Assembly: GCA_963728205.1 (NCBI GenBank)
Contig: CAVSIV010000006.1
Coordinates: 1,696,001 to 1,760,000 of the forward strand
Source: an uncultured Chloroflexia bacterium
GTDB lineage: Bacteria > Chloroflexota > Dehalococcoidia > UBA2979
Direction: 5' to 3'
DNA length: 64,000 bases
Below the pieces are notes generated by a model. It searched no databases and was not told the origin of the DNA. It worked only from the letters and a program-made list of their open reading frames with translations. Numbering within the stretch: the stretch's first letter is position 1; every line of letters starts with the position of its first letter. Below, one piece after another: positions 9,152 through 64,000 of this stretch. Position numbers and translations under genes: made by a program.

Positions 9152-10405
9152 ATGCCCCCCGACGCCCCGCAGGCCGAACCGCCACTCCCGCTCGCCGGCG
9201 TCCGCGTCTGCGACTTCTCGTGGATCGTCGCGGGGCCGCAGGCGACGCGCATCCTCGCGGACCTCGGCGCCGAGGTGATCAAGGTCGAGAACGAGTCCTA
9301 CCTCGACTCCATGCGCCTCGGGCTGCAGACCGACCCCGAGCACCCCTCGCTTAACGGCAGCGGCTTCTACTCGAACTTCAACCGCAACAAGCTCGGCATT
9401 ACGGCCAACATCCACCACCCGAAGGGCCGCGAGGTCGTCGAGCGGCTGATCGCGAAATCCGACGTCGTCATCGAGAACTTCAGCGCCGGCGCGTTCGAGC
9501 GCATGGGCCTCGGCTGGGAGCGCCTGCGCGTGCTCAACCCGTCGATCATCTACGTCTCGCTGTCGGGCTTCGGCCACCTCGGGCGCGACGACAGCTACGT
9601 GACGTGGGGCCCCACCGCGCAGGCCGTCTCGGGCGTGACCGCGATGTCCGGGATGCCCGACCAGCCGCCCGCGGGGTGGGGGTTCTCGTACCTCGATCAC
9701 ACCGCCGGCTACTACGGCGCGATCGCGATCCTGATGGCGCTGCTGCACCGCCGTCGCACCGGCGAGGGCCAGTACGTCGACATGTCGCAGATCGAGACCG
9801 GCATGGTGCTCGGCGGCGTGCCGATCCTCGACCGCCAGGTGAACGGTCGCGACTACGTGCGGGCCGGCAACCGCTCGCGCACCCCCGCCGTCGCGCCGCA
9901 CGGCGCCTACCGCTGCCGCGACGACGCGCTCTCCGACCGCTGGGTGGCCATCGTCGGCGAGACCGACGCGCAGTGGCGCGCGCTGTGCGACGAGCTCGGC
10001 GTGCCGGCGCTCGCCGGCGACCCGCGCTTCGCGACGAACGACGCACGCGTCGCGAACGAGGACGCGCTCGACGCCGCGCTCACCGAGCGCACGCGCGACC
10101 GCGAGGCGCCCGACCTGATGTACGCGCTGCAGGCGCGCGGCGTGCCGGCCGGCCTCTGCCAGCGCACCGACGACAAGATGGAGCGCGACCCGCAGCTGCG
10201 CGCGCGCGACTTCTACCGGTGGGCGCCCCACGCCGAGATGGGCGAGCACCGCTTCGACGGCCTGCCCATCGCGTTCTCCGACGCGCGCTGGCGGATGTGG
10301 CGCGGCGCGCCGCTGCTCGGCGAGGACACGTTCGAGGTGCTGACGCAGCTCCTCGACTACGCGCCCGAGGAGATCGCCGAGCTGCAGGGCGAGGCGGCGG
10401 TCTGA
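9152..10405 (+). CDS. CaiB/BaiF family III CoA-transferase
   Basis: PLAGVRVCDFSWIVAGP, LADLGAEVIKVE, NRNK, DVVIENF, APLLGE. Confidence 0.93.
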   Translation: MPPDAPQAEPPLPLAGVRVCDFSWIVAGPQATRILADLGAEVIKVENESYLDSMRLGLQTDPEHPSLNGSGFYSNFNRNKLGITANIHHPKGREVVERLIAKSDVVIENFSAGAFERMGLGWERLRVLNPSIIYVSLSGFGHLGRDDSYVTWGPTAQAVSGVTAMSGMPDQPPAGWGFSYLDHTAGYYGAIAILMALLHRRRTGEGQYVDMSQIETGMVLGGVPILDRQVNGRDYVRAGNRSRTPAVAPHGAYRCRDDALSDRWVAIVGETDAQWRALCDELGVPALAGDPRFATNDARVANEDALDAALTERTRDREAPDLMYALQARGVPAGLCQRTDDKMERDPQLRARDFYRWAPHAEMGEHRFDGLPIAFSDARWRMWRGAPLLGEDTFEVLTQLLDYAPEEIAELQGEAAV

Positions 10406-11679
10406 TGGCCGCGCCGGGGGCGGACGCTCCGCCGGGACCGCTCGAGGGTCTGCATGTCGTCGAGATCGGCGACGGCGGCGAGATCGCGGGCAAGCTGCTC
10501 GCCGACGCCGGCGCCGACGTCATCCGCGTCGAGCCGCCCGCCGGCGCGCGCTCGCGCCACGCCGGGCCGTTCGTCGGCGACCGGCCCGACCCGAACGCGT
10601 CGCTCGCGTTCCACGCGCGCAACACAAGCAAGCGCGCGGTCACGCTCGACGTCGCGAGCGAGCGCGGGCGCGACCTGTGGGCGCGGCTGGTCGGCTGGGC
10701 GGAGGTCGTGATCGACAGCAGCGGCCCCGGCGCACTCGACGCGCTCGGCGCGGGCCGCGACGCCTTCGCCGGCCGCGACGACCTCGTGTGGTGCTCGATC
10801 ACGCCCTTCGGCCTCACCGGGCCGTGGCGCGACTGGGCCGCGACCGACCTCGTCCAACTCGCGCTCGGCGGGCCGATGATGAGCACGGGCTACGACGACC
10901 ACGACCTCCCGCCGGTCCGCCCCGACGGCGAGCATGCGATGGCGATGTCGAACGAGTACGCCGTCTCCGCGATCCTCGCCGCGCTGTGGCTGCGCGAGGA
11001 GACCGGCCACGGCCAGCTCCTCGACGTCTCGGTGCACGAGTCGGTGAGCGCCACGACCGAGGGTTCGTTCCCGAACTGGGAGTACCTGCGCAAGGTGGTG
11101 CAGCGCCAGACCGGTCGCCACGCCGCGCCCGACGAGACCGCGCGCTGGCAATACCAGTGCGCGGACGGCGCGTACATCCTGCTGATGGGCGGCGGGATCC
11201 CGCGCGAGAAGCGCATCCTCGACGCCCTCGTCGCGTGGATCGCCGAGACCGCACCGGCGCTCGCCGACCGGCTGCGCGCGCCCGAGGTCGCGGAGGTGCT
11301 GTACGTCGACCCGCGCGCACGCCCCGAGCTGCGGCGCATGGTATCGGAGACCATCGGCGAGTTCGTGGAGACGCGGCCGGCGGAGGAGGTGTACCGCCGC
11401 GGCCAGGCGTTGCACCTGCCGTGGGGACTGGTGCGGCGGCCCGAGGAGAACCTCGACGACCCGCACTGGGACGACCGCGCCTTCTGGTGGGAGGGCGAGG
11501 TGCACAGCCACCCCGCGCCGGTCCGCTACCCCGGCGCCCCGTACCGTTTCACCGCGACGCCGGTGCGGATGCGGCGCCGCCCGCCGCTGCTCGGCGAGCA
11601 CAACCACGAGGTGTACGCCGGCCTGCTCGGCGTGCCGGCCGAGGAACTGCCCGCGCTCGCAAAGTCGGGCGCGATCTAG
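10405..11679 (+). CDS. CaiB/BaiF family III CoA-transferase (second subunit)
   Basis: TGATG overlap; GKLLADAGADVIRVEPPAG, NTSKR, ITPFGLTGP, PPLLGEHN. Confidence 0.92.
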   Translation: MAAPGADAPPGPLEGLHVVEIGDGGEIAGKLLADAGADVIRVEPPAGARSRHAGPFVGDRPDPNASLAFHARNTSKRAVTLDVASERGRDLWARLVGWAEVVIDSSGPGALDALGAGRDAFAGRDDLVWCSITPFGLTGPWRDWAATDLVQLALGGPMMSTGYDDHDLPPVRPDGEHAMAMSNEYAVSAILAALWLREETGHGQLLDVSVHESVSATTEGSFPNWEYLRKVVQRQTGRHAAPDETARWQYQCADGAYILLMGGGIPREKRILDALVAWIAETAPALADRLRAPEVAEVLYVDPRARPELRRMVSETIGEFVETRPAEEVYRRGQALHLPWGLVRRPEENLDDPHWDDRAFWWEGEVHSHPAPVRYPGAPYRFTATPVRMRRRPPLLGEHNHEVYAGLLGVPAEELPALAKSGAI

Positions 11680-11805
11680 CGGGCGGCAGACGGCCTCCGA
11701 CGCAGACGCGAACATGGGCTCGCCGTCGCCGATTGAGCAGCCCGCGTGACGGGAGTGGCGTGCTTCGAGCGGCCGCCGGGAGGCTGCCGATCGAACCGCC
11801 GTGGC

Positions 11806-11985
11806 CTACGCCGGCCGCACCAGCACGGCGAGGAAGAAGATCACGATCCCCGCGACGATCAGTCCGCCGGTGAACCGCAGGCTCAGCATGCGTCCCTGCC
11901 GCCGTCGCACCAGCCACAGCACGTCGCCCGCAAGGAAGAAGGCGATGCCGACGGCGGCGAGCAGGAGCGTGAAGAAGGTGCGCAT
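11806..11985 (-). CDS. small two-helix membrane protein, 59 aa (not in ORF track)
   Basis: MRTFFTLLLAAVGIAFFLAGDVLWLVRRRQGRMLSLRFTGGLIVAGIVIFFLAVLVRPA*. Confidence 0.65.
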   Translation of the reverse strand: MRTFFTLLLAAVGIAFFLAGDVLWLVRRRQGRMLSLRFTGGLIVAGIVIFFLAVLVRPA

Positions 11986-12079
11986 GCGGTGATGCTACCG
12001 GCTGGGCGTCATCCGCGCCGACCGATGCCGTCCACTCCCAGTGCGTGTGAGGCGAACGGCCGCGGCCGGCGCGTGCCGT

Positions 12080-12766
12080 CTACGCGACGATCGGCAGCGA
12101 GCACGCCTCCGCGAACGCGTGGAGGGCCGCGATCACGTCCTCGACCGACGCCCCGGCGCCGAGGTCGCGCACGATGCTGGCCGCGTCGGCGTGGGGGTCC
12201 AGCAGCCGCCGCGCCGTCCACGACGCCTCGCGGGCCAGCGCCGCCGCACGCGGCGCGAGCGCGTCGAGCGCGTGTTCGCCGGCGGCCGCATCGGCATCGG
12301 GGTCGGCCGCCGCGTGGGTCGCGGCGAACGCCAGCATGCGCGGCGCCCACGTCGCGCCGAGCCCGCGCACGCGGCAGAACGCCGTCAGGTCCGCGAGGTA
12401 GCCGGCGATCTCCGGGTCGGGGGGCTGCGCGGCCGCCGCCTCGTACACGCCCCGCGGGTCGTCCCACGAGAAGCGCTGCGCCGCGGCATCGACGTACTCC
12501 AGCGCGTGCTCGTACGGCGGCGGGCCCTCGTAGGTGATGCGCGCGCCGACGTCGAGTCCCGCCAGGTAGGGCATCGCGACCGGCCGCCGCACCGCCTCCG
12601 CGAGCACGTGCGCGCCGCGGGCGCGCAGCCCCGCGAGCTCCGCCGCGCAGTCGCGCCCGGCCGGCGAGCCGTCGCGCTCCAGCGCGCGCAGCAGCGCGAG
12701 CCCGCGGCTGAGCCGCTCGCCGCGCGTGCGGGCGATCGGGGCCGAGGAGCCGGGAGTGGTGGTCAT
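12080..12766 (-). CDS. hypothetical protein
   Basis: 228-aa ORF with GC3-biased codons directly downstream of pyrE; no motif recognised. Confidence 0.65.
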   Translation of the reverse strand: MTTTPGSSAPIARTRGERLSRGLALLRALERDGSPAGRDCAAELAGLRARGAHVLAEAVRRPVAMPYLAGLDVGARITYEGPPPYEHALEYVDAAAQRFSWDDPRGVYEAAAAQPPDPEIAGYLADLTAFCRVRGLGATWAPRMLAFAATHAAADPDADAAAGEHALDALAPRAAALAREASWTARRLLDPHADAASIVRDLGAGASVEDVIAALHAFAEACSLPIVA

Positions 12767-12803
12767 CGTGCGCCTGCTCAGCTCCGGGTGATCGCGGGTG
12801 CGG

Positions 12804-13367
12804 TCAGGTGATCTTGAGCGGCACGCCCTGCGCGCACAACGGGCAGCCCTCGGCGTCCCAGCTCTGCATGTCGACCTCGGTCGCCGCGAAGAACGGCAAG
12901 CCGAAGTCGGTGCGCCCAGCGGAGCGGTCGACCACCACCGCGACGCCGACCGGCTCCGCGCCGGTCGCGCGCACGGCGTCGAGCGTGTCGCGCACGGAGC
13001 CGCCCGACGTCAGCACGTCGTCGACCACGAGCACGCGCTCGCCGGGCGCCAGGTGGAAGTCGCGCTGGAACGAGCGCCCGCCGGCGTCGTCGCGTTCGGC
13101 GAAGATGCCGCGCAGGCCGAGCTGCCGGCCAATCTCGTAGGCAAGGAGGATGCCGCCCGTGGTCGGTCCGGCGACCGTCTGCGGCTGCAGCGAGCGCATC
13201 GCGTCGGCCATCTTCCGGCACACCAGCTCGGTGTAGCGCGGCCACTGCAGCAGGTTGAACTTCTCGAGGTAGCGGTCCGAGTGGCGGCCGGACGCCAGCT
13301 GGAAGTGCCCCTCCAGGAACGCGCCGGCCGACTGCAGGGCTGCGATGACCTCGGGGTCTACGGGGAT
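12804..13367 (-). CDS. pyrE: orotate phosphoribosyltransferase
   Basis: GHFQLASGRHS--Y, VLVVDDVLTSGGSV PRPP motif, CPLCAQG tail; start uncertain (ATC at 13367). Confidence 0.9.
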   Translation of the reverse strand: MPVDPEVIAALQSAGAFLEGHFQLASGRHSDRYLEKFNLLQWPRYTELVCRKMADAMRSLQPQTVAGPTTGGILLAYEIGRQLGLRGIFAERDDAGGRSFQRDFHLAPGERVLVVDDVLTSGGSVRDTLDAVRATGAEPVGVAVVVDRSAGRTDFGLPFFAATEVDMQSWDAEGCPLCAQGVPLKIT

Positions 13368-14170
13368 GCGCGCACCCCCACGCTGAGGCCCGCGACGGGC
13401 GTCGCCGCGACGCCCGCCTGGCCCTGCGACGTCGCGGGGCCGAACGGCCGGTCGTGCGTGATCATGCCGATCTTGTCGAACGGCCAGTAGCGCACGTCGG
13501 CGCGGCCGATCACGAGGTGCTCGTCGACCATCCCCCACGCGTGCGAGTCGTATGAGTTGTTGCGGTTGTCCCCGAGCACGAACAGGTCGCCCGCGGGCAC
13601 CTGCTCCGGCCCGTAGGTGTATGACGGCGAGTCGAGGATGTACGGCTCGCTGAGCATCTTGCCGTTCACGTAGACGTGCCCGCCATGGATGTCGACGGTG
13701 TCGCCCGGCAGCCCGATCACCCGCTTGATGAAGTCGCGCGACTGGTCGAGCGGGAACTTGAAGACGACGACGTCGCCGATTTCCGGCTGGCCGAAGGGGT
13801 GCCAGTCGGTCTTGTCGACGCCGGGCACCCAGGAGACGTCAAAGGTGTGGTAGGCGAGCCGGTTCACGATCAGCAGCTCGCCGTTGTGGAACGAGGGCAG
13901 CATCGACGCGCCGTCGACGACGAAGTTCTGGGCGACCGAGCGCACGGCGACGAACATGATGATCGCGAGCGCGATGACCTCGAGCGTCTCAGAGATCTGG
14001 GCGAGCCCCCAGGGCCACAGCACCTGCCCCCACGAGCGCCGCGCGGGCAGCCACGGGTCGATGTCGGCGAGGCCGGCGTGCGTGGGTGTGGGGAAGGGTT
14101 GGAGCAACGGGACGGGCTCGTCGGCGTCGGGCTGCGGGGTGGATTCGAGCATCCAGTCGAGTATATGCAC
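13358..14170 (-). CDS. lepB: signal peptidase I
   Basis: GASMLPS (catalytic Ser), DFIKRVIGLPGD (Lys), FVLGDNRNNSYDSH; start uncertain. Confidence 0.92.
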   Translation of the reverse strand: MHILDWMLESTPQPDADEPVPLLQPFPTPTHAGLADIDPWLPARRSWGQVLWPWGLAQISETLEVIALAIIMFVAVRSVAQNFVVDGASMLPSFHNGELLIVNRLAYHTFDVSWVPGVDKTDWHPFGQPEIGDVVVFKFPLDQSRDFIKRVIGLPGDTVDIHGGHVYVNGKMLSEPYILDSPSYTYGPEQVPAGDLFVLGDNRNNSYDSHAWGMVDEHLVIGRADVRYWPFDKIGMITHDRPFGPATSQGQAGVAATPVAGLSVGVRASP

Positions 14171-52800: not shown

Positions 52801-55563
52801 TCTCGTATCCGCTGACGGACCGGGCGCGCGCTCACGCGACCGCGCCACAGGACTCCGCCGAGTACGCGCGCCACGCGACCGAGGTTCGCGCGGCGGCCGA
52901 GCGGTTCGTACGTGACATCGCCCCGCTTGACGAGGACTTCGACGTCGCCAGGACGACGTGGGGAGCGTGGGACGAGGCCCCATTGGCCGGCCTGCAGGAA
53001 TGGGCTGAAGATTTTTCCGAGCACGCGACGTCCGCTGCGGACTGGGTCGAGCACCGCTCAGCGGTGGCCGACCTCGAGCAGGAGTTCGGGCCGGGTGTGG
53101 TCGATTGCATCCGGACAGCAACCGCGGACTCGGCGCAGGTTCCAGGGATTGTCGAGCGGCGGCTGTTCGCAGCATGGCTCGATCACGCTCGCCACGAGGG
53201 CGAGCCGATCCTCGGCGACTTCACCGCCAGGGATCAGGAGGACGTCCGGCGCGCCTTCCGGGCGCTCGACCAGGTATTCGTTCGAGGCCGCGCGCTGGCG
53301 AGTGCGCGAGCGATGCTTCGTCGCCTACCCGGACCGCTACTCGACGAGCACAGGAGCGGGACAACTCGGGACGCTGCGCTCCGAACTCCCAAGCGGCGCC
53401 GGCGAATGCCGGTCAGGAGGCTGTTCCGGCGGGTACCGGGGCTCATGCAGGCACTCAAGCCATGCTTCCTCATGAGCCCGCTTGCGGTGAGCCAGTACCT
53501 CCCGCACGGCCAGCTGGCGACCGAGACCATGGAGTTCGGCGTCGTCATCTTCGACGAGGCCTCGCAGGTCTTACTCGAGGACGCCGTCCCCGCGCTCGCG
53601 CGAGCGAAGTACGCCATCGTTGCCGGCGACACGAAACAGTTGCCGCCGACGAACTTCTTCCGTCGCACACAGGCCGACGACGACGGTCCGGTCGACGACG
53701 ACGAGGACGAAGACGAGGACGGCTTCACGGGTCGCGAAAGCATCCTCGACGTGATGGTCGGCATGGCCGGTCGGAACGTCGCCGAGCAGTACCTGACCGT
53801 CCACTACCGGAGCAAGCACGAGAGCCTCATCCGGTACTCAAACCACTACTTCTACGAGGATCGCCTGCTCGATGTTCCTGGCGCCCGTGCGCGACGGCAG
53901 CGACAGCCACGTCGGGATCAAGGACGTCGATCCGCCAGATGCGCGGTACGACGCCGGTGCGTCCAAGACGAACAGGGGCGAAGCCGAGGAAGTCGTTGAG
54001 CGCGTATTCGCCCTCATGCGCTCTCGCCCGGAGGGCGAGAGCGTCGGAGTCGTCGCGCTATCCGGGCGCAGGCGGACTACATCGAACGCATGGTCGAGGA
54101 ACGCCGTCTCGAGGAACTGGATCTCGACGAGCGTTTCGCCGAGGACCGGCACGAACGGTTCTTCGTGAAGAACCTCGAGAACGTCCAGGGCGACGAGCGC
54201 GACCACATCATCCTGAGTTGTTGGGGTACGGGCCCTACCGTGGGGTCGGGGGCCGTGCCCAATCCGCTCGGTCCCATCAATTCTGCCGGGCGGACTAGCG
54301 CCGGCTCAACGTCGCTGTGAGCCGCGCCCGCTTGAAGCATGACCGTCGTGCACTCGCCCGCGTCGGAGGACATCGTGGCTCAGAGCGAGGGAGTCAAGGG
54401 TTGCTCCGCCGGTACCTGGAGTACGTGCGCAACCCGGCCCCGGCGCGTCTTCGAGGCGGAGGTCACCGTCGACCGCGCGGCGGAGCCCGAGTCGCCCTTC
54501 GAGGAAGAAGTGCGCCGCGCGCGCTCGAGGGACGCGGCTATCGCGTCGATTCCGCAGGTGGGGGTTTCCGGGTACCGGATTGACCTTGGCATCGCGTCCG
54601 AGGAGCGGGACACGGTACGACCTCGGCATCGAGTGCGACGGCGCGACGTATCACCGCGCACCGGCCGCGCGAGACCGGGACCGCCAGCGGCAGCAGGTGC
54701 TGGAGGGGCTGGGCTGGCGGATCGACCGCGTCTGGTCAACCGCCTGGGCGCGCAATGCAGACGGCGAGATTGCGGCGCTCGAGCGCGCCATCGCCGATGC
54801 GCGAGCCGGTACGCCCAACGAACCGGTCCCCCCGGGGGGCGGTGGCGGGAAGGGGCCGAACCTTCAAGTGGTTCCGATAAGCCCCGATGACCGGGAGGCG
54901 CGCTTTACCGTCGTGCCGCCACCCGACTCGTCTGCGGAGGAGCCGGCTCCATTGTTCGACGAATACGACGAGGCGTCGCTGTCCGACATCCGGGTCGGGC
55001 CGGAGCTCCGCTACGAAGTCGAGCCGACGATGACCGCGCTCATCCGGCGAGTGGTCGAGGTGGAGCAACCGGTGCACGTGGACCTCGTTGTTGAGCGCAT
55101 TTGCGACCGGTATCGGCTACACCGTGCCGGCTCTGCGATACGCGAGCGCGTCGAACGCGGCGTCCGGGAAGCAGTCAAGGCCGGCGTCGTAGCGCGCGAT
55201 GGGGCCGGACCGCAGAGCGCGTTCCTCCGTCTCCCGGCGGCCGACGGGGCGCCACCGCGTCGGCCCTCGAAACGGACCACCCGGACGATTGACCACATCG
55301 CAAACAGTGAGTTGGACACGGCCCTGTTGCTGGTGGCGTCGGAGGTGTTCGGCGCGGAGAAGGGCGAACTCATCGTCGAGACGGCACGTGAGTTGGGGTT
55401 CGACCGGACAGGTGCGCGGATTGAGCATCGGCTGAGGCAGGCGATCGACAGGCTGGTGAAGCAAGGCCGCTTGCGCCAGCAGTTCGACACCCTGGTAGCC
55501 GTTGCAGCTTCTTCGCAGGTGCGACCTGACGGGGAATCGTACGAAGAGGGCGTTGTTGGCTAG
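49804..55563 (+). CDS. DUF4011 - SF1 (DNA2/NAM7) helicase - Vsr-like REase - DUF3320 protein (Hhe-type defence), many frameshifts
   Basis: WQEKLLQLDRRN; GPPGTGKSQTIANLI; KVLFVSEK-AALDVV; PCFLMSPLAVSQYL; IFDEASQ; GDTKQLPPT; HYRS; ENVQGDERD; ESPFEEEV; IECDGATYH; RDRDR-RQ-VLE-LGW. Confidence 0.85.
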
Positions 55564-55806: not shown

Positions 55807-57193
55807 ATGCGTTCGATTTGAATGTCGAAAGGTCCTCGAGCATTGGCCCGTCCCGTTCGCAATACGCGAGGTGATCGCCAACGCGCTGGACGAGCGGCGC
55901 TGACCGGCACCGCCGACCCGAACATCCCGTGCGACAAGATGGCCGGTGGCACATCCGCGACTACGGCCGGGGGCTGCGTTACAAGCACCTGTCGCAGAAG
56001 GAGAACTCGGAGAAGCGCGGCCTCCCGGCGCGGTCGGCCAGTTCGGCATGGGTTTGAAGGACGCTCTGGCCGTGTTCGACCGCCGCGGCGGGGGGTCATC
56101 CGCTCGGCGCACGGCGACATCCTCATCGCGAAGCGCCAGAAGGCGGGGTTTCCCGACGTGCGTACTGCACGCCCTCGTCGGGCCGCCGGCCGATCCCCAC
56201 TCGTTGGCACGGACGTGGCGCTGACCGGAGTAGACGAGAAGCAGGTGGCGGACGCCAAGGGGTTCTTCCTGCGTTTCTCCGACGAGCCGTGAACTGGAGT
56301 CGACGCCCGACGGGCAAGTGCTGAAGCGAGCGAAAGGTGCTGCGACCAGCCGGATCTACGTGAAGGGGCTGCGCATCGCAGAGGAGCCCAACTTCCTGTT
56401 CAGTTACAACATCACCGACATCAACGCGCCGCTGCGGCGTGCATTGAACCGTGAGCGATCAAGTGGGCGCACTGCGTATACGGACCGGTGAAGGAGTGCT
56501 CATCGAGTGCGCCTGCCTGACGGTCGCGAGGCCCGTTGGCCGAACGATCTCGGCGGCCTTCTCTGCAGGCACCCAGCACGACGAGCTCCTATCATGGACC
56601 GAGGTCGCGCTGCATGCCTGTAGAGTTCTTCAGTCACACGAGAAGGTGGTCTTCGTGACTGCGGGCAGCTGGTCAAGCAGGCAGTCCACAACTGACGTAC
56701 GCTCGGGACGACGGCTACCGGCTTGTGACAATCCCCGACGACATCGCGGCTCGGCTCGGAAAGATGACAGATCTTGGGGGCCGGCCGTTGATGGACCTTG
56801 GTGCCTACAGGACATCATGGAATGAGAGCTTCTCCTACACCTTCGTGGAGCCGGACGATTTTTCCCCGCGGGAACGTGCGTCCTACGAACGAACGACGGC
56901 CATTCTTTGCGCTGATCCGACAGCGCATGGGCACTGGCCGTATCAAGCGTGTTCAGATCTCCAGACAATGCGCCTCATGGAGTCGGGCGATCAGGTTCGG
57001 GGACTCTGGGATCCAGACGAGGGACGAATCATCATTCGGCGCGATCAAGCTGGGCAATCTCGCTGCGTACGCGGGGACGCTTCTGCACGAGCTTGGCCAC
57101 GCCACCAGTGGCACGGTGGACCAGTCCATGGAATTTGAAGAGGTTCTCTCAGTCATGCTCGGTCGGGTTGCCGCGACTGCCCTCGCTTCCTGA
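55807..57193 (+). CDS. GHKL-type ATPase with C-terminal HExxH domain (MPN635-like), several frameshifts
   Basis: AGGAG RBS; FDLNV, VLEHW, AIREVIANALDE, IRDYGRGL, GQFGMGLKDALA; C-term TLLHELGH. Confidence 0.75.
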
Positions 57194-57295
57194 GCCGGTG
57201 GCGCAGCGAGGCGCGCGTTCACAGGTCTCGCGAGCAGGTGGCGAGAGTCATGAGTGCTTCACCGGGCGCGGGGCGCCTGTTCAAGAGGGAGTCGA

Positions 57296-59274
57296 ATGGA
57301 CGCGAGCGAACTAGGCTGGATCACCAACTACATCTGGGGCATCGCTGACGATGTCCTTCGCGACCTCTACGTCCGCGGCAAGTATCGCGACGTGATCCTG
57401 CCCATGACCGTGCTCGCCGGCTCGACGCCGTCCTCGAACCGACGAAGGGTGCCGTGCTGAGCATGAAACGGTCGCTGGACGCGCGGCATCACGAACCAGG
57501 ACGGGCCCTGCGTCAGGCAGCTGGCCAGGCGTTCTACAACACCTCTCCGTTCACCCTCCGAGACCTCCGCTCCCGCGCCAGCCAGCAGCAGCTGCGTGCG
57601 GACTTCGAGGCGTACCTCGACGGGTACTCCTCGAACGTGCAGGACATCCTCGAGAACTTCGAGTTCCGCAACCGGATCCCTCGCCTCTCGATGGGGCGGA
57701 CGCGCTCGGGACGCTGATCGAGAAGCTGCTGTCACCTGGCATCAACCTGAGTCCGAATCCGGTCCTGAACGGCGATGGCTCCGCGAAGCACCCTGGCCTC
57801 GACAACCATGCGATGGGGACGATTTTCGAAGAGCTGTTGCGTCGCTTCAACGAGGAGAACAACGAGGAGGCCGGCGAGCACTGGACGCCGCGCGATGCGG
57901 TGAAGTTGATGGCGAACCTGATCTTCCTCCCGGTCGCCGACGCGATCGAGTCCGGCACGTACCTCCTCTACGACGGGGCCTGCGGCACGGGTGGCATGCT
58001 GACCGTTGCCGAGGAGACGCTGCAGGAGCTGGCGGGACAGCACGGCAAGGAGGTCTTCCACCCACCTCTACGGGCAAGAGATCAACGCGGAAACCTACGC
58101 GATCTGCAAAGCGGACCTGCTCCTGAAGGGAGAGGGCGACGCCGCCGACAACATCGTCGGGGGCCAGAGCATTCGACGCTTTCCAACGACGCCTTCCCGT
58201 CACGTGAGTTCGACTTCATGCTCAGCAACCCGCCCTACGGAAAGAGCTGGAAGAGCGACCAGGAGCGCATGGGCGGCAAGTCCGGGATGCGCGACCTGCG
58301 CTTCGTCATCGAGCATGCCGGCGATCCCGAGTACTCGCTCGTCACCCGCTCGAGCGACGGGCAGATGCTGTTCCTCGCCAACATGCTGAGCAAGATGAAG
58401 CACGGCACACCGATGGAGTCGCATCGCCGAGGTCCACAACGGGAGCTCGCTCTTCACCGGCGACGCCGGGCAGGGCGAGAGCAACATCCGCCGCTGGATC
58501 ATCGAGAACGACTGGCTCGAGGCGATCCTCGCGCTGCCGTTGAACATGTTCTACAACACCGGCATCGCCACCTACGTCTGGGTGCTCAGCAACCGCAAGC
58601 CGGCCGACCGCGCCGGCCGCGTGCAGCTCATCGACGCGACCCAGTGGTACACGCCACTGCGAAAGAACCTGGGCAAGAAGAACTGCGAGCTGTCCGAGGC
58701 GGACATCCGGCGCGTCTGCGAGACGTTCCTGGCCTTCGAGGAGACCGAGCAGTCGAAGATCTTCCCCAACGCCGCCTTCGGCTACGAGAAGGTGACAGTG
58801 GAGCGCCCGCTGCGACTGCGCGGCGTCGAGGGCGGGCGTGTCTATTCCGCGAAGGAACTAAAGGTGCTCAAGGAGTCGGCGGGGCGCGACGACGACGCCC
58901 CCCGCTGATCAAGAAGGTGCACAAGCGTGTCGCGGCGCAAGACCCGATCCGAGGGCTGTTCGAGGCGACGGTCGATGGCAAGCCCGCCGTCGTGGAGTAC
59001 GAGCCGGACACTGACCTGCGCGACACCGAACAGGTGCCGCTGCTGGAGGAGGGTGGCATCGAGGCGTTTCTCCGCCGCGAGGTGCTGCCGTACGCCCCCG
59101 ACGCCTGGATGGGACGGCAGCGTGAAGATCGGCTACGAGGTCAGCTTCACGCGGTACTTCTACAAGCCGCCGCCGCTGCGCTCGCTGGAGGCAATCCGCG
59201 CCGACATCGTCGCGCTTGAGAGCGAGACTGAAGGGTTGCTGAAGGAGACTGATCGAAGCGGAGCTGCGCGATGA
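57296..59274 (+). CDS. hsdM: type I restriction-modification methyltransferase subunit, several frameshifts
   Basis: IWGIADDVLRD, MGTIFEELLRRFNE--NEEAGEHWTPRD, YDGACGTGGML, SNPPYG, NMFYNTGIATY, KIGYEVSFTRYFY. Confidence 0.9.
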
Positions 59275-61090
59275 AAGCGATCCACGGGAAGGCGAAGAGC
59301 GTTCGGCAGCTTCTTCAGGGCGTGAAGTACTCCATCGACTACTACCAGCGCGAGTACCGGTGGAGGCCAAGCAGGTTCGCGAGCTCGTCAACGACCTCAG
59401 CGGCACGTTCCTCGAGGAGTACCAGCCCGGACTCAGCCGGACCAAGGTCGCCGATTTCCCCACTACTTTCTCGGCTCGATCATCATTAGCCAGAAGGGCA
59501 GCGAGATTTTCGTCGTGGACGGCCAGCAGCGACTCACGAGCCTGACCTTGATGCTGATCTCCTGCGTAACCTCCAGGGGGATCGTCCCGAGCGGTGAACA
59601 TCGACGAACTCATCTTCTCGGAGCGATACGGGCAGAAGACGTTCAACCTCGCGGTCGATGAACCGCCCTGTGTATGGAAGCCCTGTTCGACAGCGACGCG
59701 TTCGATCCATCCGACCAGACCGAATCGGTGCAGAACCTATACGCGGACCAGGATCTGACTCGAGAAGCTCCCGAGGAACTTCGAGAAGCTGCCCTCCCTT
59801 ACTTCGTGGACTGGGTCATCGACAACGTCCACCTCGTCGAGATCACGGCGTACTCGGACGACGACGCCTACAAGATCTTCGAGACTATGAACGACCGAGG
59901 TCTGTCACTCAGCCCAACCGACATGCTGAAGGGCTACCTGCTCGCCAACATGGAATCGCAGCGACGCGTCCCCGCGAACGAGCTATGGCGCGGGCGCCTG
60001 CTCCAGACTCAATGAGTGGGGCGATGACTCCGATGCCGACTTCTTCAAGGCGTGGCTTCGGAGTCAGTACGCGACGCGATCCGAGAGCGCAAGCGCGGCG
60101 CGGTCCCTGAGGATTTCGACCGTATTGGCACGGAATTCCATCGCTGGCTCCGGGAGGCGAGCCTTCGATCGGCCTCAATCAGCCGGACGACTTCTTCCGC
60201 TTCCTCCAGCGTGACTTCGACTTCTACAGCAAGCAGTACCTGCGCATCGCGGAGGCCGAGATGGAGCCCGTGGAGGGGCTTGAGCACCTGATGTACGTGT
60301 TCGACCACGGCTTCACGCTGCACTACATGCTGCTGCTCGCTCCGCTACGCCCCGAGGACTCCGAGGATGTCGTCACGGTGAAGCTCGGGCTCGTCGGACG
60401 TTTCACCGATACACTTCTGGCATGGCGAATCTGGAACTGGCGATCGATCGCGTACTCGACCATGCAGTACGCGATGTTCCTTGTGATGCGCGAGATTCGA
60501 GGGTTAGAGCCGGTGGCGCTGGCTCAGAAGCTCCACGGCCTCCTGAGCGTGAGCCCGAGACGTTCGCGACCAACAACCGGCTGCGGATGCACCAGCAGAA
60601 TCGCTACGCCCTTCACCGCCTATTGGCGCGAATGACCGACTACGTCGAGACGCAGTCAGGGCAGGCCTCGCGCTACCCGGAATACGTGGCGTCTGGGAAG
60701 GATCGCTACGAGGTGGAGCACATCTGGGCCGACCACTTCGATCAGCACCGCGATGAGTTTTCGCATGAAGCGGACTTTGCGGAGCATCGGAACCGCATCG
60801 GTGGGCTGCTGCTGCTGCCGAAGTCGTTCAACGCGTCATACGGGGACTTGCGATACGAGAAGAAGCTCCCACATTACAATACGCAGAACCTGCTCGCGCG
60901 GTCGCTGCATCCACAGGCATACGATCACAACCCAGGTTTCCTGCAGTTCATCAAGGCCAGTGGTCTCCCCTTCCACCCCTACGAGCACTTCAAGCAGGCG
61001 GACATCGAAGAGCGCGCCGAGCTCTATCGGCGGCTCGCCGAGCGCATCTGGAACCCCGACGACCTGTTGCGGGAGGTCGAGGCGCTCTGA
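59271..61090 (+). CDS. GmrSD-like DUF262-DUF1524 type IV restriction protein, several frameshifts
   Basis: YSIDYYQREYRW, VVDGQQRLTSL, AYKIFETMNDRGLSLS--DMLK, EVEHIW, NRIGGLLLL--SFN. Confidence 0.85.
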
Positions 61091-61161
61091 TGCTTACCCA
61101 CCTCCCTCCCTACGCCGCCTACCGCGACACCGGGCTGAGCTCGGCCGGGGAGGCACTCTGA
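61090..61161 (+). pseudogene. 23-codon stub duplicating the hsdS 5' end
   Basis: MLTHLPPYAAYRDTG vs HsdS MLTHLSPYRAYRDSG; TGATG overlaps at both ends. Confidence 0.75.
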
Positions 61162-62199
61162 TGCCGACTCGTCAGGAACTCCTCGCCTCTATTCCCACTA
61201 CGACTGCCGACTACCGCGCGGGTGAACTCCCCGCGCCGACGCCCGGAGCACGTAGATCGCTGGGTCGGGCAGTTTCCGACTGACGTGCAGGAGGCGATGC
61301 TCGGCGAGATCGATCACGTCCTCAAGAGCACATACTTCAGCCGTGCTCGCGCCCAGCAGTATCTGACGAGCCTCATCTCTACCGAGGGGATCGCTGGTCT
61401 CGATCCTGCGGCGTTCTGGGTCAACGTGACTTGTCTCGATGGTCAGGCTCACGGATCTTCGCAGCGTGAACTCGTCGCGACGTTCACCAAGCTGCTTCGG
61501 GACGCCTTCGGGATCGAGATCACCGATCCTGTCATCAACCCACGGGTGTTCTTGTATCTCGATGACGCAATCTTTAGCGGCGACACCCTTCGCCGCGACC
61601 TGCGGTCGTGGATTGAGAACGATGCACCCGCGATGGCAAGCGTTCACGTTGTGGTGTTCACCCTCCACACCGGATTCTGGTACGCCAGGAAGCGGATCGG
61701 GGATGCGATACAGGCGTCCGGGAAGCAGATCACAGTCACCTACTGGCGCGCACAGGAGGTGAAGAACAAACGGGATGAGCGACGTGACGCAGGCGTTCTG
61801 TGGCCTTGGGAGATACCCGATGAGGAGGTCGTTCAGAACTACGTTGGAGGTCTTCAGCACGCGGTGACACTCAGGCCGCTAGGTGGCGATCTCGGCCCCT
61901 TCTCTTCGGAGGGCGGTCGCCAGCTACTGGAGAGGGAGTTCACGATCGCTGGTGCACGGATCCGCTCGGCCTATCAAGACCCCAGCGACATCCTCCGTCC
62001 GCTCGGATACAGCCGCTTTGGACTTGGCTTCGGCTCGATGACGGTGACCTATCGCAACTGTCCGAACAACGCCCCACTTGCACTCTGGTGGGGCAACGCG
62101 GGTGGAGTCGGACCCGCCCACTTCAACAACTGGTACCCGCTCGTCCCCAGAAAGGTGCATCAGCAGAATCCGGGAGGCCTTTATGCCTTCTCCGTCTGA
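61161..62199 (+). CDS. phosphoribosyltransferase-like protein, one frameshift near 61242
   Basis: FLYLDDAIFSG resembles the type I PRTase PRPP-binding loop; RPLGY, YRNCPNN, WYPLVPR tail; family call by motif only. Confidence 0.65.
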
Positions 62200-64000
62200 C
62201 CAGACCCAGCTCCGCACCTACGACCGTGCCGCCAGCGTTGTCTTCCGCAAGACGAACGAGGAGTTCGGCGGGCTGTCCAACATGGCAGCGGGGTTCCCGC
62301 TGGAGGTAAACGGGCTCGCGATCCGCACGGCCGAGGCGCTGTACCAGGCGTGCCGGTTCCCCCACCGATCTGAGCTCCAACGCCACATCGTCGACCAGCG
62401 CAGCCCGATGACGGCGAAGATGGTCGGGAAGCCGCACCGTCACGACTCCCGCCGCGACTGGGATCGCGTGCGAGTGGCCGTCATGCGCTGGACGCTGCGC
62501 GTGAAGCTCGCACAGAACTGGAGCGCGTTCGGTGAGTTGCTGCTCGCCAGCGGCGAACGACCGATCGTCGAGGACTCCCGGCGCGACGACTTCTGGGGAG
62601 CAAAGCAGGTCGATAGCCAGACCCTTACTGGCATGAACGTGCTTGGGCGACTGCTGATGGAGCTCCGCGAGGACCTCCGCGATCGCGGCACGGCGCTGCT
62701 CACCGTCGAACCACCGGCCATCGGAGATTTCCTGCTCGATGGACAGCCGATCGAGGCCATCCGTGGCGCCGAGGCGCGTCTACGGCCCGGCCTCGAAGAC
62801 CACCGCGTGGACGAAGTGCGCCAGCCCTCGCTGTTTCACGACCAGCCCCTCGCTGAACCAGAGGAGCTCAGCCGGATGCTTACCCACCTCTCTCCCTACC
62901 GCGCCTACCGCGACTCGGGCGTCCCTTGGCTGGACGATGTCCCCGAGCACTGGGAGGTACTGCCGGCGCTGGCGGCGTACCAGCCGAAACTCGTCCGCAA
63001 TGTCGGAATCATGGAGAGTAGGGTGCTCTCGCTGAGTTACGGACGGATCGTCGTGCGCCCGCTGGAGAAGCTCCGAGGGCTCGTGCCAGAGTCGTTCGAG
63101 ACGTATCAGATGGTCGATCCCGGGAACATCATCGTCCGGACAACTGACCTACAGAACGATCAGACGAGCCTGCGGGTCGGGATCGCACGGGACCGAGGAA
63201 TCATCACTTCGGCTTACCTCTGTCTCACCACAACCGGCCGCATGTCGCCTGAGTTCGGCTACCAGTTCCTGAACGCGTATGACCTCCTCAAGATCATCTA
63301 CGGCTACGGGTCTGGACTCAGACAGAACCTCAGCTTCATAGAAATCAAGCGGATGCCAGTTCTCGTTCCACCCCCGGAGGAACAAGCCGCCATCGTGCGC
63401 TTCCTTGACTACGCCGACCGGCGCATCCGGCGGTACGTGCTCGCGAAGCGGCGGCTGATCGCGCTCCTCGAGGAGCAGAAGCAGGCGATCATCCATCGCG
63501 CCGTCACGCGCGGCCTCGACCCGGACGTGCGGCTGAAGCCGTCCGGCGTGGAGTGGCTGGGGGACATCCCGGAGCGCTGGGAGGCTGTCCCGTTCAAGAG
63601 CAGGATCGCGTTCCAAGAGGGTCCGGGGATCATGGCCTCGGAGTTCCGCGACGACGGAGTGCCGCTGCTTCGCATCTCGTGTCTTCGAGGTGACAGTGCG
63701 ACGCTCGACGGCTGCAACTACCTGGATCCTGAGTCCGTGAGTCGGCGTTGGAGTCACTTTGCGGTAAAGCCTGACGACTACCTTCTAACTTCGAGCGGCA
63801 GCCTTGGATCTGTTTCGCAAGCTAACGAGGAAGTCGCCGGTGCGATCCCGTACACAGGGATCATCCGACTGTGGCCGAAGTTGCCTGCAGGCGTTCACAT
63901 GGATTTCGTGCGCTACTTCCTGGTCTCTGAACTCTTCGCTGCGCAGATCCGTTTCATGAAGACAGGTGTCGGGATCGAGCATTTCGGCCCCACTCATCTG
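62183..64000 (+). CDS. hsdS: NADAR (YbiA-like) domain fused in frame to type I R-M specificity subunit; 3'-truncated, absent from ORF track
   Basis: Open frame 62183 to end. NADAR: GGLSNM, EALYQA-RF, W---RV-VM---LRVK, IVE-S--D-FWG, G-NVLGRLLMELRE. HsdS from 62876: YRDSGVPWL--VP-HW, PP-EEQ-AIV-FLD, KQAIIHRAVTRGLDP---KPSGVEWLGDIP-W. Confidence 0.85.
   Translation, partial: MPSPSDQTQLRTYDRAASVVFRKTNEEFGGLSNMAAGFPLEVNGLAIRTAEALYQACRFPHRSELQRHIVDQRSPMTAKMVGKPHRHDSRRDWDRVRVAVMRWTLRVKLAQNWSAFGELLLASGERPIVEDSRRDDFWGAKQVDSQTLTGMNVLGRLLMELREDLRDRGTALLTVEPPAIGDFLLDGQPIEAIRGAEARLRPGLEDHRVDEVRQPSLFHDQPLAEPEELSRMLTHLSPYRAYRDSGVPWLDDVPEHWEVLPALAAYQPKLVRNVGIMESRVLSLSYGRIVVRPLEKLRGLVPESFETYQMVDPGNIIVRTTDLQNDQTSLRVGIARDRGIITSAYLCLTTTGRMSPEFGYQFLNAYDLLKIIYGYGSGLRQNLSFIEIKRMPVLVPPPEEQAAIVRFLDYADRRIRRYVLAKRRLIALLEEQKQAIIHRAVTRGLDPDVRLKPSGVEWLGDIPERWEAVPFKSRIAFQEGPGIMASEFRDDGVPLLRISCLRGDSATLDGCNYLDPESVSRRWSHFAVKPDDYLLTSSGSLGSVSQANEEVAGAIPYTGIIRLWPKLPAGVHMDFVRYFLVSELFAAQIRFMKTGVGIEHFGPTHL

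Follow-up and report, generated by a model that had tools for sequence, protein, structure and literature searches.

What does it mean that a phosphoribosyltransferase (PRTase)-like gene is followed by a NADAR domain which runs, in one open frame, into the specificity subunit of a type I restriction-modification (R-M) system? The question is raised by a locus at the end of a 64,000-nt stretch (the window) of contig CAVSIV010000006.1 from an uncultured Chloroflexia bacterium, where a type I R-M operon consisting of hsdM, a GmrSD-like gene, hsdS and hsdR carries the PRTase-NADAR pair between hsdM/gmrSD and hsdS. All positions are window coordinates, and features lying past 64000 are given as window-equivalent. 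A preliminary description of this DNA, which knew of no described system with such an architecture, proposed the pair as part of a candidate new system. That proposal does not survive, as the core of the locus matches the named antiphage system DS-32; the covalent link between its NADAR component and HsdS is another matter, and comparison with other loci establishes this fusion as real and recurrent across many phyla.

The product of the PRTase gene scores 331.1 bits against the NCBIfam equivalog NF053875 (DS32_1_antiphage; cut-off 250), and residues 11-190 of the fused protein score 267.3 bits against the equivalog NF053876 (DS32_2_antiphage; cut-off 240). The two genes are adjacent, with the PRTase gene first and its stop codon (TGA 62197-62199) lying beyond the NADAR ATG at 62183, an overlap of 17 nt (62183-62199). 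We are highly confident of the architecture and of the identity of the window pair as DS-32 and not a new system; the assignment is based on the names of the NCBIfam models and on the published description of the system rather than on comparison with the DS-32 sequences themselves. The DefensePredictor preprint presents DS-32 as an Escherichia coli system, validated against phage, in which A is a PRTase and B a NADAR protein; B is described as structurally like DarG and A as unlike DarT, and a swapping of toxin-antitoxin partners is suggested. The Science version refers to NADAR only in passing.

A search of E. coli genomes with the DNA of a Marinomonas DS-32 locus found nothing, and the E. 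coli pair was located through a homologous locus of Klebsiella. It is present in 62 of 5426 complete E. coli genomes, and the one E. coli locus that was inspected has it in a lambdoid prophage, flanked by replication gene P and the nin region. Its products, annotated as 'phosphoribosyltransferase-like protein' and 'NADAR family protein', pass the same NCBIfam cut-offs and align over their full lengths with those of the window at 29% (PRTase, 4e-39) and 45% (NADAR, 7e-58) identity.

The association of the two genes extends well beyond these examples. A PRTase-homologue profile, run against a single genome for each species, gave 80 loci (41-48% identity) from many phyla, in 79 of which NADAR directly follows the PRTase; the remaining locus ends 96 nt past the PRTase gene. 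A metagenome scan that started from NADAR yielded 46 loci, five of them cut at the contig start, and a PRTase gene stands upstream in all 41 that are not cut. The pairing is also found in Klebsiella and Vibrio records, and the preliminary description's expectation of a conserved neighbour pair is thus borne out. Within the host's own order, component 1 is present in only five of 99 genomes including this one and in none of three genomes of the same genus, and the other four positive genomes all carry a free PRTase-NADAR pair (4/4); such a patchy spread fits horizontal gain.

The upstream gene had been described as a PRTase-like open reading frame (ORF) of about 345 aa, of which the family and the length stand and the single open frame does not. 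The frame that begins with the ATG at 61161 stops at 61283, with the remainder in the next frame from about 61243, and alignment with a 345-aa homologue (P0002, 86% identical) reveals one extra G at 61245/61246. With this base disregarded the protein has 345 aa, the same length as homologues at 86% and 81% identity; the break may be a sequencing or assembly error or, with equal likelihood, a mutation. The protein matches Pfam PRTase-CE (PF24390, 1e-44) and contains a phosphoribosyl pyrophosphate (PRPP)-loop motif, VFLYLDDAIFSGD (61546-61584), and the block RNCPNNAP (62053-62076), a PNNxP motif; the D-D-x-x-x-x-G loop and the N-C-P-N-N-x-P block are invariant across 44 homologues. The genome has a single copy. 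An AlphaFold2 (AF2) model (pLDDT 83) has a five-strand core, and its ten best Foldseek matches in the PDB are all type I PRTases (PyrR, UPRT, HGPRT and OPRT), albeit weak, with a best E of 1.7e-3 and none at E ≤ 0.001. Both the Pfam match and these structural neighbours agree with the PRTase family membership claimed at the outset. A profile search against PDB sequences found nothing significant, the best relevant rows being PyrR at E 0.56-0.9 over the PRPP loop only, and a PADLOC scan of the PRTase lists only PRTase_III-A, weakly (1.9e-6). Prediction of a PRTase-NADAR complex gave a score of 0.00 in two runs in which the controls were also unfolded, with a NADAR chain that ended at residue 206 and lacked the Q-P-S-L-F motif discussed below, and is no evidence either way.

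The NADAR part is recognized by Pfam (PF08719, 4.4e-26, residues 21-166) and passes the TIGR02464 cut-off (77.9 versus 73.7 bits), and a profile search of the PDB places E. coli YbiA (2b3w, 7.1e-29) as its best solved relative. Thirty-four columns are invariant over 71 fused and free NADARs, including E51 (62333-62335), R58, K79, E130 (62570-62572) and W138, and D135 is kept in at least 90% of these sequences, so that the motif set is as complete as first reported. By their spacing, E51, E130, D135 and W138 correspond, in the Phytophthora NADAR of known structure, to E43, E125, D130 and W133, of which E125 is reported to be the glutamate of the YbiA subfamily. Because the catalytic-site residues are invariant, the fused NADAR looks like a working enzyme rather than a relic.

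Whether NADAR and HsdS are truly one protein requires somewhat closer examination. The frame from ATG 62183 is open through the hsdS ATG at 62876, which lies 693 nt downstream and in frame, to a stop at window-equivalent 64312; the linker region contains an out-of-frame TGA (62854-62856) and a Shine-Dalgarno-like GAGGAG (62861-62866), 9 nt before the hsdS ATG. These features, like the protein motifs, lie exactly where the preliminary description had put them. This arrangement of TGA, GAGGAG and ATG resembles a normal gene junction, as would be expected if NADAR and HsdS were separate here and an indel error had removed the NADAR stop. The genome is 89% complete with 5.6% contamination, and its rpoB (G000:C6:1072371-1075962, outside the window) is broken into three or more frames that contain two internal TGA codons, while rpoC is whole; hsdM, the GmrSD-like gene, the PRTase gene and hsdR are likewise broken. 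The assembly therefore has indel errors, the open NADAR-HsdS frame in this assembly alone proves little, and the case rests on other loci. NADAR and HsdS occupy a single ORF in all 34 genome loci and all six metagenome loci that have HsdS downstream, so that 40 of 40 other loci with HsdS after the pair are fused and none has the two genes simply adjacent. In the nearest relative, L085 (82-86% identical), the fusion is at the same spot and there is no Met at the junction, so a separate HsdS start is impossible there, and the entire 709-aa frame of the window aligns in one piece with the fused protein of L018. Proteins in a set of 5.8 billion are in agreement: with E ≤ 1e-20 as the limit the NADAR part has 1013 matches, 389-1241 aa in length, and by our own count 97 of the 120 listed carry NADAR plus Methylase_S, with lengths of about 690-770 aa. 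They were called as single proteins by independent gene callers, under the names 'type I restriction enzyme S subunit' or 'NADAR domain-containing protein', and the closest among the matches listed, P0121 (91%, 697 aa) and P0122 (84%, 704 aa), are joined at the same place as the window protein. NADAR-HsdS proteins form hundreds of 90%-identity clusters, with fused clades across many phyla and diverged linkers. The fusion noticed in the window is thus real and widespread, and we consider it extremely improbable that it arose from an assembly error.

The fused genome loci have HsdM upstream in 30 of 34 cases (the other four have less than 2.3 kb of upstream sequence) and HsdR downstream in 29. 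Fused loci that lack hsdR, in the manner of the Ronin system, were considered and rejected, since in L024 hsdR (10020-13392) is merely interrupted by transposases of the Mutator and rve families. In an AF2 model of the window protein (35-row alignment, mean pLDDT 81, pTM 0.60) a confident NADAR domain (about residues 10-200) is followed by a confident HsdS (about 230-675, pLDDT 85-95) that has long helices at 398-443 and 616-659 and a pair of lobes rich in beta structure, and the acidic C-terminal tail is floppy. The PADLOC Specificity_I profile matches residues 236-670 over positions 3-444 of its 448.

HsdS is not the only partner to which NADAR is joined. In two genome and eight metagenome loci it is fused to the N-terminus of an adenine methylase of about 1000 aa with DUF1156, which is HmaB (PADLOC, 2.4e-100), the methylase of the Hma system. 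The gene order in L093 and L097 is HmaA helicase, PRTase, NADAR::HmaB and HmaC ATPase, which mirrors the order hsdM, PRTase, NADAR::hsdS, hsdR; the Hma-embedded loci lie at 7981-11685 in L067, 6997-14923 in L093 and 3460-13933 in L097. An AbiEii gene is present just upstream of the Hma/DS-32 locus in L097. Three further NADARs have C-terminal extensions of 140-230 residues (L004 5793-6761, L071 7947-9083 and L094 1905-3191); a Pfam scan of those in L004 and L071 gives NADAR only, and L004 has a weak JetD-like PADLOC match (2.6e-4). In a search that covered the main texts of open journals we found no paper on NADAR-HsdS or NADAR-HmaB fusions, although the DefensePredictor supplements may show such contexts; the fused architectures are present in databases and look undescribed, whereas the PRTase-NADAR core is already known and named.

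A NADAR tree was built from 119 rows, comprising the window and 118 of 126 loci, eight having been dropped for a NADAR match that was broken or shorter than 150 residues. The rows are 41 HsdS-fused, 9 HmaB-fused, 64 free, 3 long-tailed and 2 undetermined. The tree is short and poorly resolved, and the three main states interleave on it, with well-supported branches forcing at least two changes for each label and a parsimony count of 11 for HsdS.

The region in which the fusion takes place has features of its own. The NADAR tail contains a conserved stretch V-x-P-x-x-I-x-x-F-L-L-x-G-x-P-I, followed by Q-x-x-[LM]-F. Of 116 tails, 57 have this second motif, where 500 shuffles gave 2.2 on average and never more than 7; the count was anchored on a motif and leaves out three rows that lack the anchor. 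Q-x-x-[LM]-F occurs in 27 of 62 free, 28 of 41 HsdS-fused and none of nine HmaB-fused NADARs, and in 23 of the 27 free NADARs that bear it the motif lies no more than three residues from the C-terminus. The window version, Q-P-S-L-F (residues 214-218, 62822-62836), falls within the disordered linker, and the E. coli DS-32-type NADAR ends in Q-S-L-S-L-F. A bacterial pentapeptide that binds the beta clamp, Q-L-[SD]-L-F, is usually C-terminal according to a review, and Q-x-x-[LM]-F resembles it, making it a putative DnaN-binding peptide; a role in docking to the PRTase is just as conceivable.

In free NADARs the protein ends just past Q-x-x-[LM]-F, and the window protein has 13 more codons that include GAGGAG; from this the fusion looks to have come about when the NADAR gene lost its stop codon and the spacer came to be translated as well. 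The idea of a conserved internal start that would yield a free HsdS was dropped, since a Met near the HsdS start is seen by eye in only a minority of the printed junctions and L085 has none; in the window itself the GAGGAG and ATG may still act as an internal start. On the other side of the pair, a 23-codon ORF repeats the first 15 hsdS codons (a 45-nt direct repeat with 89% identity) and overlaps its neighbours by TGATG stop/start sequences at both ends, one with the stop of the GmrSD-like gene and one with the PRTase ATG, which may couple translation. A decayed version of this hsdS-derived ORF is in the same place in L085 (2535-2597). The repeat was not found in six other fused loci that were examined, and a crude motif scan of 111 loci found no hsdS-vestige ORF, although it also missed the decayed L085 copy. 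The small ORF and its repeat are probably a recombination scar, the cassette having entered an older gmrSD-hsdS junction in this lineage.

How might the pair and the R-M system work together? We infer that the pair acts as writer and eraser and is functionally coupled to the R-M core, a reading that we hold tentatively and with rather less than full conviction, at somewhat under an even likelihood. The PRTase would be the effector, spending PRPP to place a 5-phosphoribosyl group on an acceptor nitrogen, either of a nucleic-acid base or of a metabolite of the nucleotide pool, and this would be harmful in the way of the related retron PRTase effector, with its PRPP depletion and aborted infection. 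NADAR would be the eraser or antidote that hydrolyses the same N-glycosidic bond, a chemistry with precedents in YbiA, acting on phosphoribosylamino-pyrimidines, and in DarT1-linked NADAR, acting on ADP-ribosyl-guanine. An eraser that is an integral part of M2S1, or of HmaB, would track the state of the methyltransferase complex in its dose, its place and perhaps its activity, so that a phage that disables, sequesters or outruns the complex would allow the PRTase to prevail, and replication would stall. In that case a single operon, and a single complex, would provide both restriction and a backup of the abortive type. The fusion to a subunit of a second methylation system, HmaB, fits tethering to a modification complex and is no proof of guard logic. 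It is also conceivable, if unlikely, that DS-32 writes and erases a mark on DNA and distinguishes self from non-self according to the carrier of the eraser. PRTase-CE would then use PRPP to phosphoribosylate the exocyclic amine of a DNA base, a modification that is not yet known, and NADAR would take the mark off only at sites of its delivery, being brought to host DNA by Q-x-x-[LM]-F through the beta clamp when free and by HsdS/M2S1 or HmaB when fused; phage DNA, copied by a replisome foreign to the host or covered by anti-restriction proteins that mimic DNA, would keep its adducts and could not replicate.

Several points weigh against a coupled writer and eraser. The accessible texts report neither toxicity of the DS-32 PRTase alone nor its neutralization by NADAR, and the Retron-Eco11 effector is reported not to be toxic when expressed alone. 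An enzymatic eraser is not obviously inactivated by HsdS inhibition, and the trigger step is a guess. Most relatives (64 of the 119 tree rows) are free, including the validated E. coli type, and the pair therefore works without an R-M partner; the interleaving of fused and free forms means that fusion is easily gained or lost and may be weakly selected. The NADAR is also closest to YbiA, a small-molecule enzyme, and a metabolite cycle fits this as well as an eraser does.

Such a cycle is the substance of one alternative, in which the two enzymes are co-effectors: a base would be coupled to PRPP by the PRTase and the product cleaved again by NADAR, and the net hydrolysis of PRPP would starve nucleotide synthesis, with the R-M or Hma complex as the sensor that switches on the tethered NADAR. 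The strict co-occurrence of the two genes in both directions and their translational coupling through the overlap would be expected of partners in a cycle, as would a NADAR that passes TIGR02464 and is nearest YbiA, which cleaves phosphoribosyl-amino pyrimidines. The toxin gene precedes the antidote gene in DarTG, and the same order here speaks for an antidote rather than a second effector. A futile cycle would moreover require a separate off-switch, of which none is visible in a two-gene system, and we see no sign that the state of the R-M complex changes NADAR activity. Published accounts can be set on both sides, as a related PRTase-CE effector depletes PRPP once activated and ShosT likewise couples a PRTase with a second hydrolytic activity, but the DS-32 authors' own reading is toxin-antitoxin-like, on the DarTG pattern. 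On balance we regard the cycle as doubtful, though worth keeping in mind. A role for NADAR in restriction itself, without the PRTase, would have it strip phage-placed ribosyl-type marks from target DNA or from R-M proteins; NADARs are reported to take ADP-ribose off guanine in DNA, and fusion to DNA-binding subunits does place the domain on DNA. It leaves unexplained both the constant presence of a preceding PRTase gene and the defence given by the free pair alone, as described for DS-32, and we consider it highly improbable.

The fusion might, on the other hand, have no functional meaning, DS-32 being a mobile cassette, maybe an addiction module, that settles in R-M and Hma operons as hot spots of defence islands, with the lost stop codon and read-through spacer a tolerated accident. 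Much of the junction would suit this, including the retained GAGGAG before the old hsdS ATG, the free NADARs that end right after their motif (23 of the 27 that have it), the hsdS vestige upstream of the PRTase as a recombination scar and the interleaved tree; HsdS with a C-terminal GFP is also reported to leave the EcoKI methyltransferase active, and thus tolerates a passenger domain. Accident is harder to reconcile with 40 of 40 loci being fused and none merely adjacent, with the same N-terminal fusion on the unrelated partner HmaB in ten loci, with fused clades in many phyla whose linkers have diverged, and with the hundreds of 90%-identity clusters. We give the absence of coupling a low probability, and prefer the writer/eraser reading with its eraser tied to the methyltransferase complex.

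The coordinates of the locus are collected in Table 1.

Table 1. Features of the DS-32-containing type I R-M locus, in window coordinates
Feature	Position	Strand	Evidence
hsdM (type I methyltransferase subunit)	57254..59274	+	Pfam N6_Mtase 1.5e-16 on 57813 piece
GmrSD-like (DUF262/DUF1524) type IV restriction gene, several frame pieces	59271..61090	+	Pfam
Direct repeat copy 1, 45 nt	61089..61133	+	Repeat search; 89% identical to copy 2, spacing 1786 nt
Small ORF, 23 codons, hsdS 5'-end vestige	61090..61161	+	Translation, direct repeat
PRTase-CE gene, DS-32 component 1	61161..62199	+	Pfam PF24390, NCBIfam NF053875
NADAR domain and conserved tail, DS-32 component 2, residues 1-200 of fused protein	62183..62782	+	Pfam, NF053876
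NADAR/HsdS linker, predicted disordered	62783..62875	+	AF2 pLDDT <50 for residues 201-229
Direct repeat copy 2, 5' end of hsdS, inside fused frame	62875..62919	+	Repeat search
HsdS part of fused protein, residues 232-709	62876..64000, 312 nt further beyond window	+	PADLOC Specificity_I 6e-88
hsdR	window-equivalent 64309-67268	+	tblastn with L018 proteins; one frame break near 66639, two frame pieces

All three R-M genes are present by Pfam, PADLOC and tblastn with the intact L018 proteins, with broken frames in hsdM and hsdR. The hsdM gene is in at least six frame pieces, the intact L018 HsdM aligning by tblastn to 57320-59262 in frames 2, 1, 3, 1, 3 and 1. Decay of the locus, as suggested by these breaks and those in the GmrSD-like and PRTase genes, was dropped as undecidable: the essential rpoB is equally broken, and frame breaks in this genome are therefore not evidence of decay. 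The GmrSD-like gene matches GmrSD_N (59674-60012, 4.4e-10) and GmrSD_C (60422-61087, 1.8e-7) in Pfam. Its C-terminal part (60422-61087) has a tblastn match in none of the 80 related genome loci, and L085 and L018 have other genes at this position, suggesting that the slot between hsdM and the DS-32 pair is often swapped. The genome of 4.1 Mb has 72-74% G+C, and within the window G+C drops to 0.60-0.67 from about 56250 to the end, as expected of acquired DNA. Just upstream of this low-G+C stretch, an ORF at 54580-55560 with REase_MTES_1575 and DUF3320 domains is the C-terminal end of a large helicase-nuclease of a kind common in defence islands. Directly before hsdM, an ORF at 56798-57193 has a zinc-peptidase-like H-E-L-G-H motif and no Pfam match, and might be an accessory gene of the island whose frame is broken.

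The defensive function of DS-32 has been validated, and the accessible texts give no mechanism for it. The recurrent covalent link of its NADAR component to the cores of two methylation-based systems is a strong hint as to where the pair acts, and the arrangement hints that two defences work as one machine. It also turns the toxin-antitoxin-like label into questions that can be tested, namely whether an eraser rides on the methyltransferase, whether anti-restriction triggers the PRTase and whether DNA is the substrate. Annotation pipelines should flag 'S subunits' of about 700 aa as bearing half of another system.

Comparison with known systems places the locus among several whose parts it shares. 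E. coli YbiA (2b3w) has the same glutamate-type active site as the window NADAR, but is a free housekeeping enzyme for the clean-up of riboflavin intermediates, with no PRTase partner, tail motif or fusion; most NADARs are free-standing single domains according to a 2023 study. ShosTA, as described in the literature, is a phage-defence toxin-antitoxin pair with a PRTase-domain toxin that disturbs purine metabolism, but its antitoxin is DprA-like and not a NADAR. No ShosT or ShosA was seen among the PADLOC families, the PRTase matching only PRTase_III-A and the best 25 of 79 matches of NADAR::HsdS being all Specificity_I. DarTG1 shares the toxin-antitoxin logic: the gene for a transferase that forms an N-glycosidic ribosyl bond is followed by one for a NADAR hydrolase, and the pair acts on DNA guanine. 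The writer in the window is predicted to be PRTase-fold and would use PRPP rather than NAD, and its NADAR has the YbiA-type glutamate where DarT1-linked NADARs are reported to have aspartate. A search of the whole genome for DarT (PF14487) gave no match, a weak negative given that the control matched in no genome and that the genome is incomplete.

Retrons of type III-A, such as Retron-Eco11, share with the window PRTase the PRTase-CE Pfam group, the PRPP loop and the PNNxP signature, G-x14-P-N-N-x-P being reported as the mark of type III-A effectors; in Retron-Eco11, activation by phage helicases is reported to have led to a loss of about 50% of PRPP and to abortive infection. The window PRTase differs in having NADAR as its partner and in lacking the retron-type winged-helix and C-terminal peptide, and no reverse transcriptase or non-coding RNA partner is seen among its neighbours (hsdM, the GmrSD-like gene and NADAR::hsdS), with no dedicated search for non-coding RNA. 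In PrrC-EcoprrI and Ronin, as described in the literature, a suicide effector is embedded in, and checked by, type I R-M parts and is released by phage anti-restriction factors, HsdMS in Ronin (HsdMS plus RonA) restraining a toxic peptide until Ocr or ArdA arrives. The effector is an anticodon nuclease in the first and a membrane peptide of 61 aa in the second, with no covalent fusion, whereas the locus here has hsdR, and what is fused in it is the presumed antidote. DS-32 itself has the same gene order, PRTase then NADAR, and the same NADAR tail motif; its validated type is a free two-gene cassette, as in the lambdoid prophage of E. coli, while the NADAR of the window forms one polypeptide with HsdS. 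PrrC and Ronin stand for a small group of restriction systems linked to a second line of response, to which the window contributes a case that is enzymatic and covalently fused.

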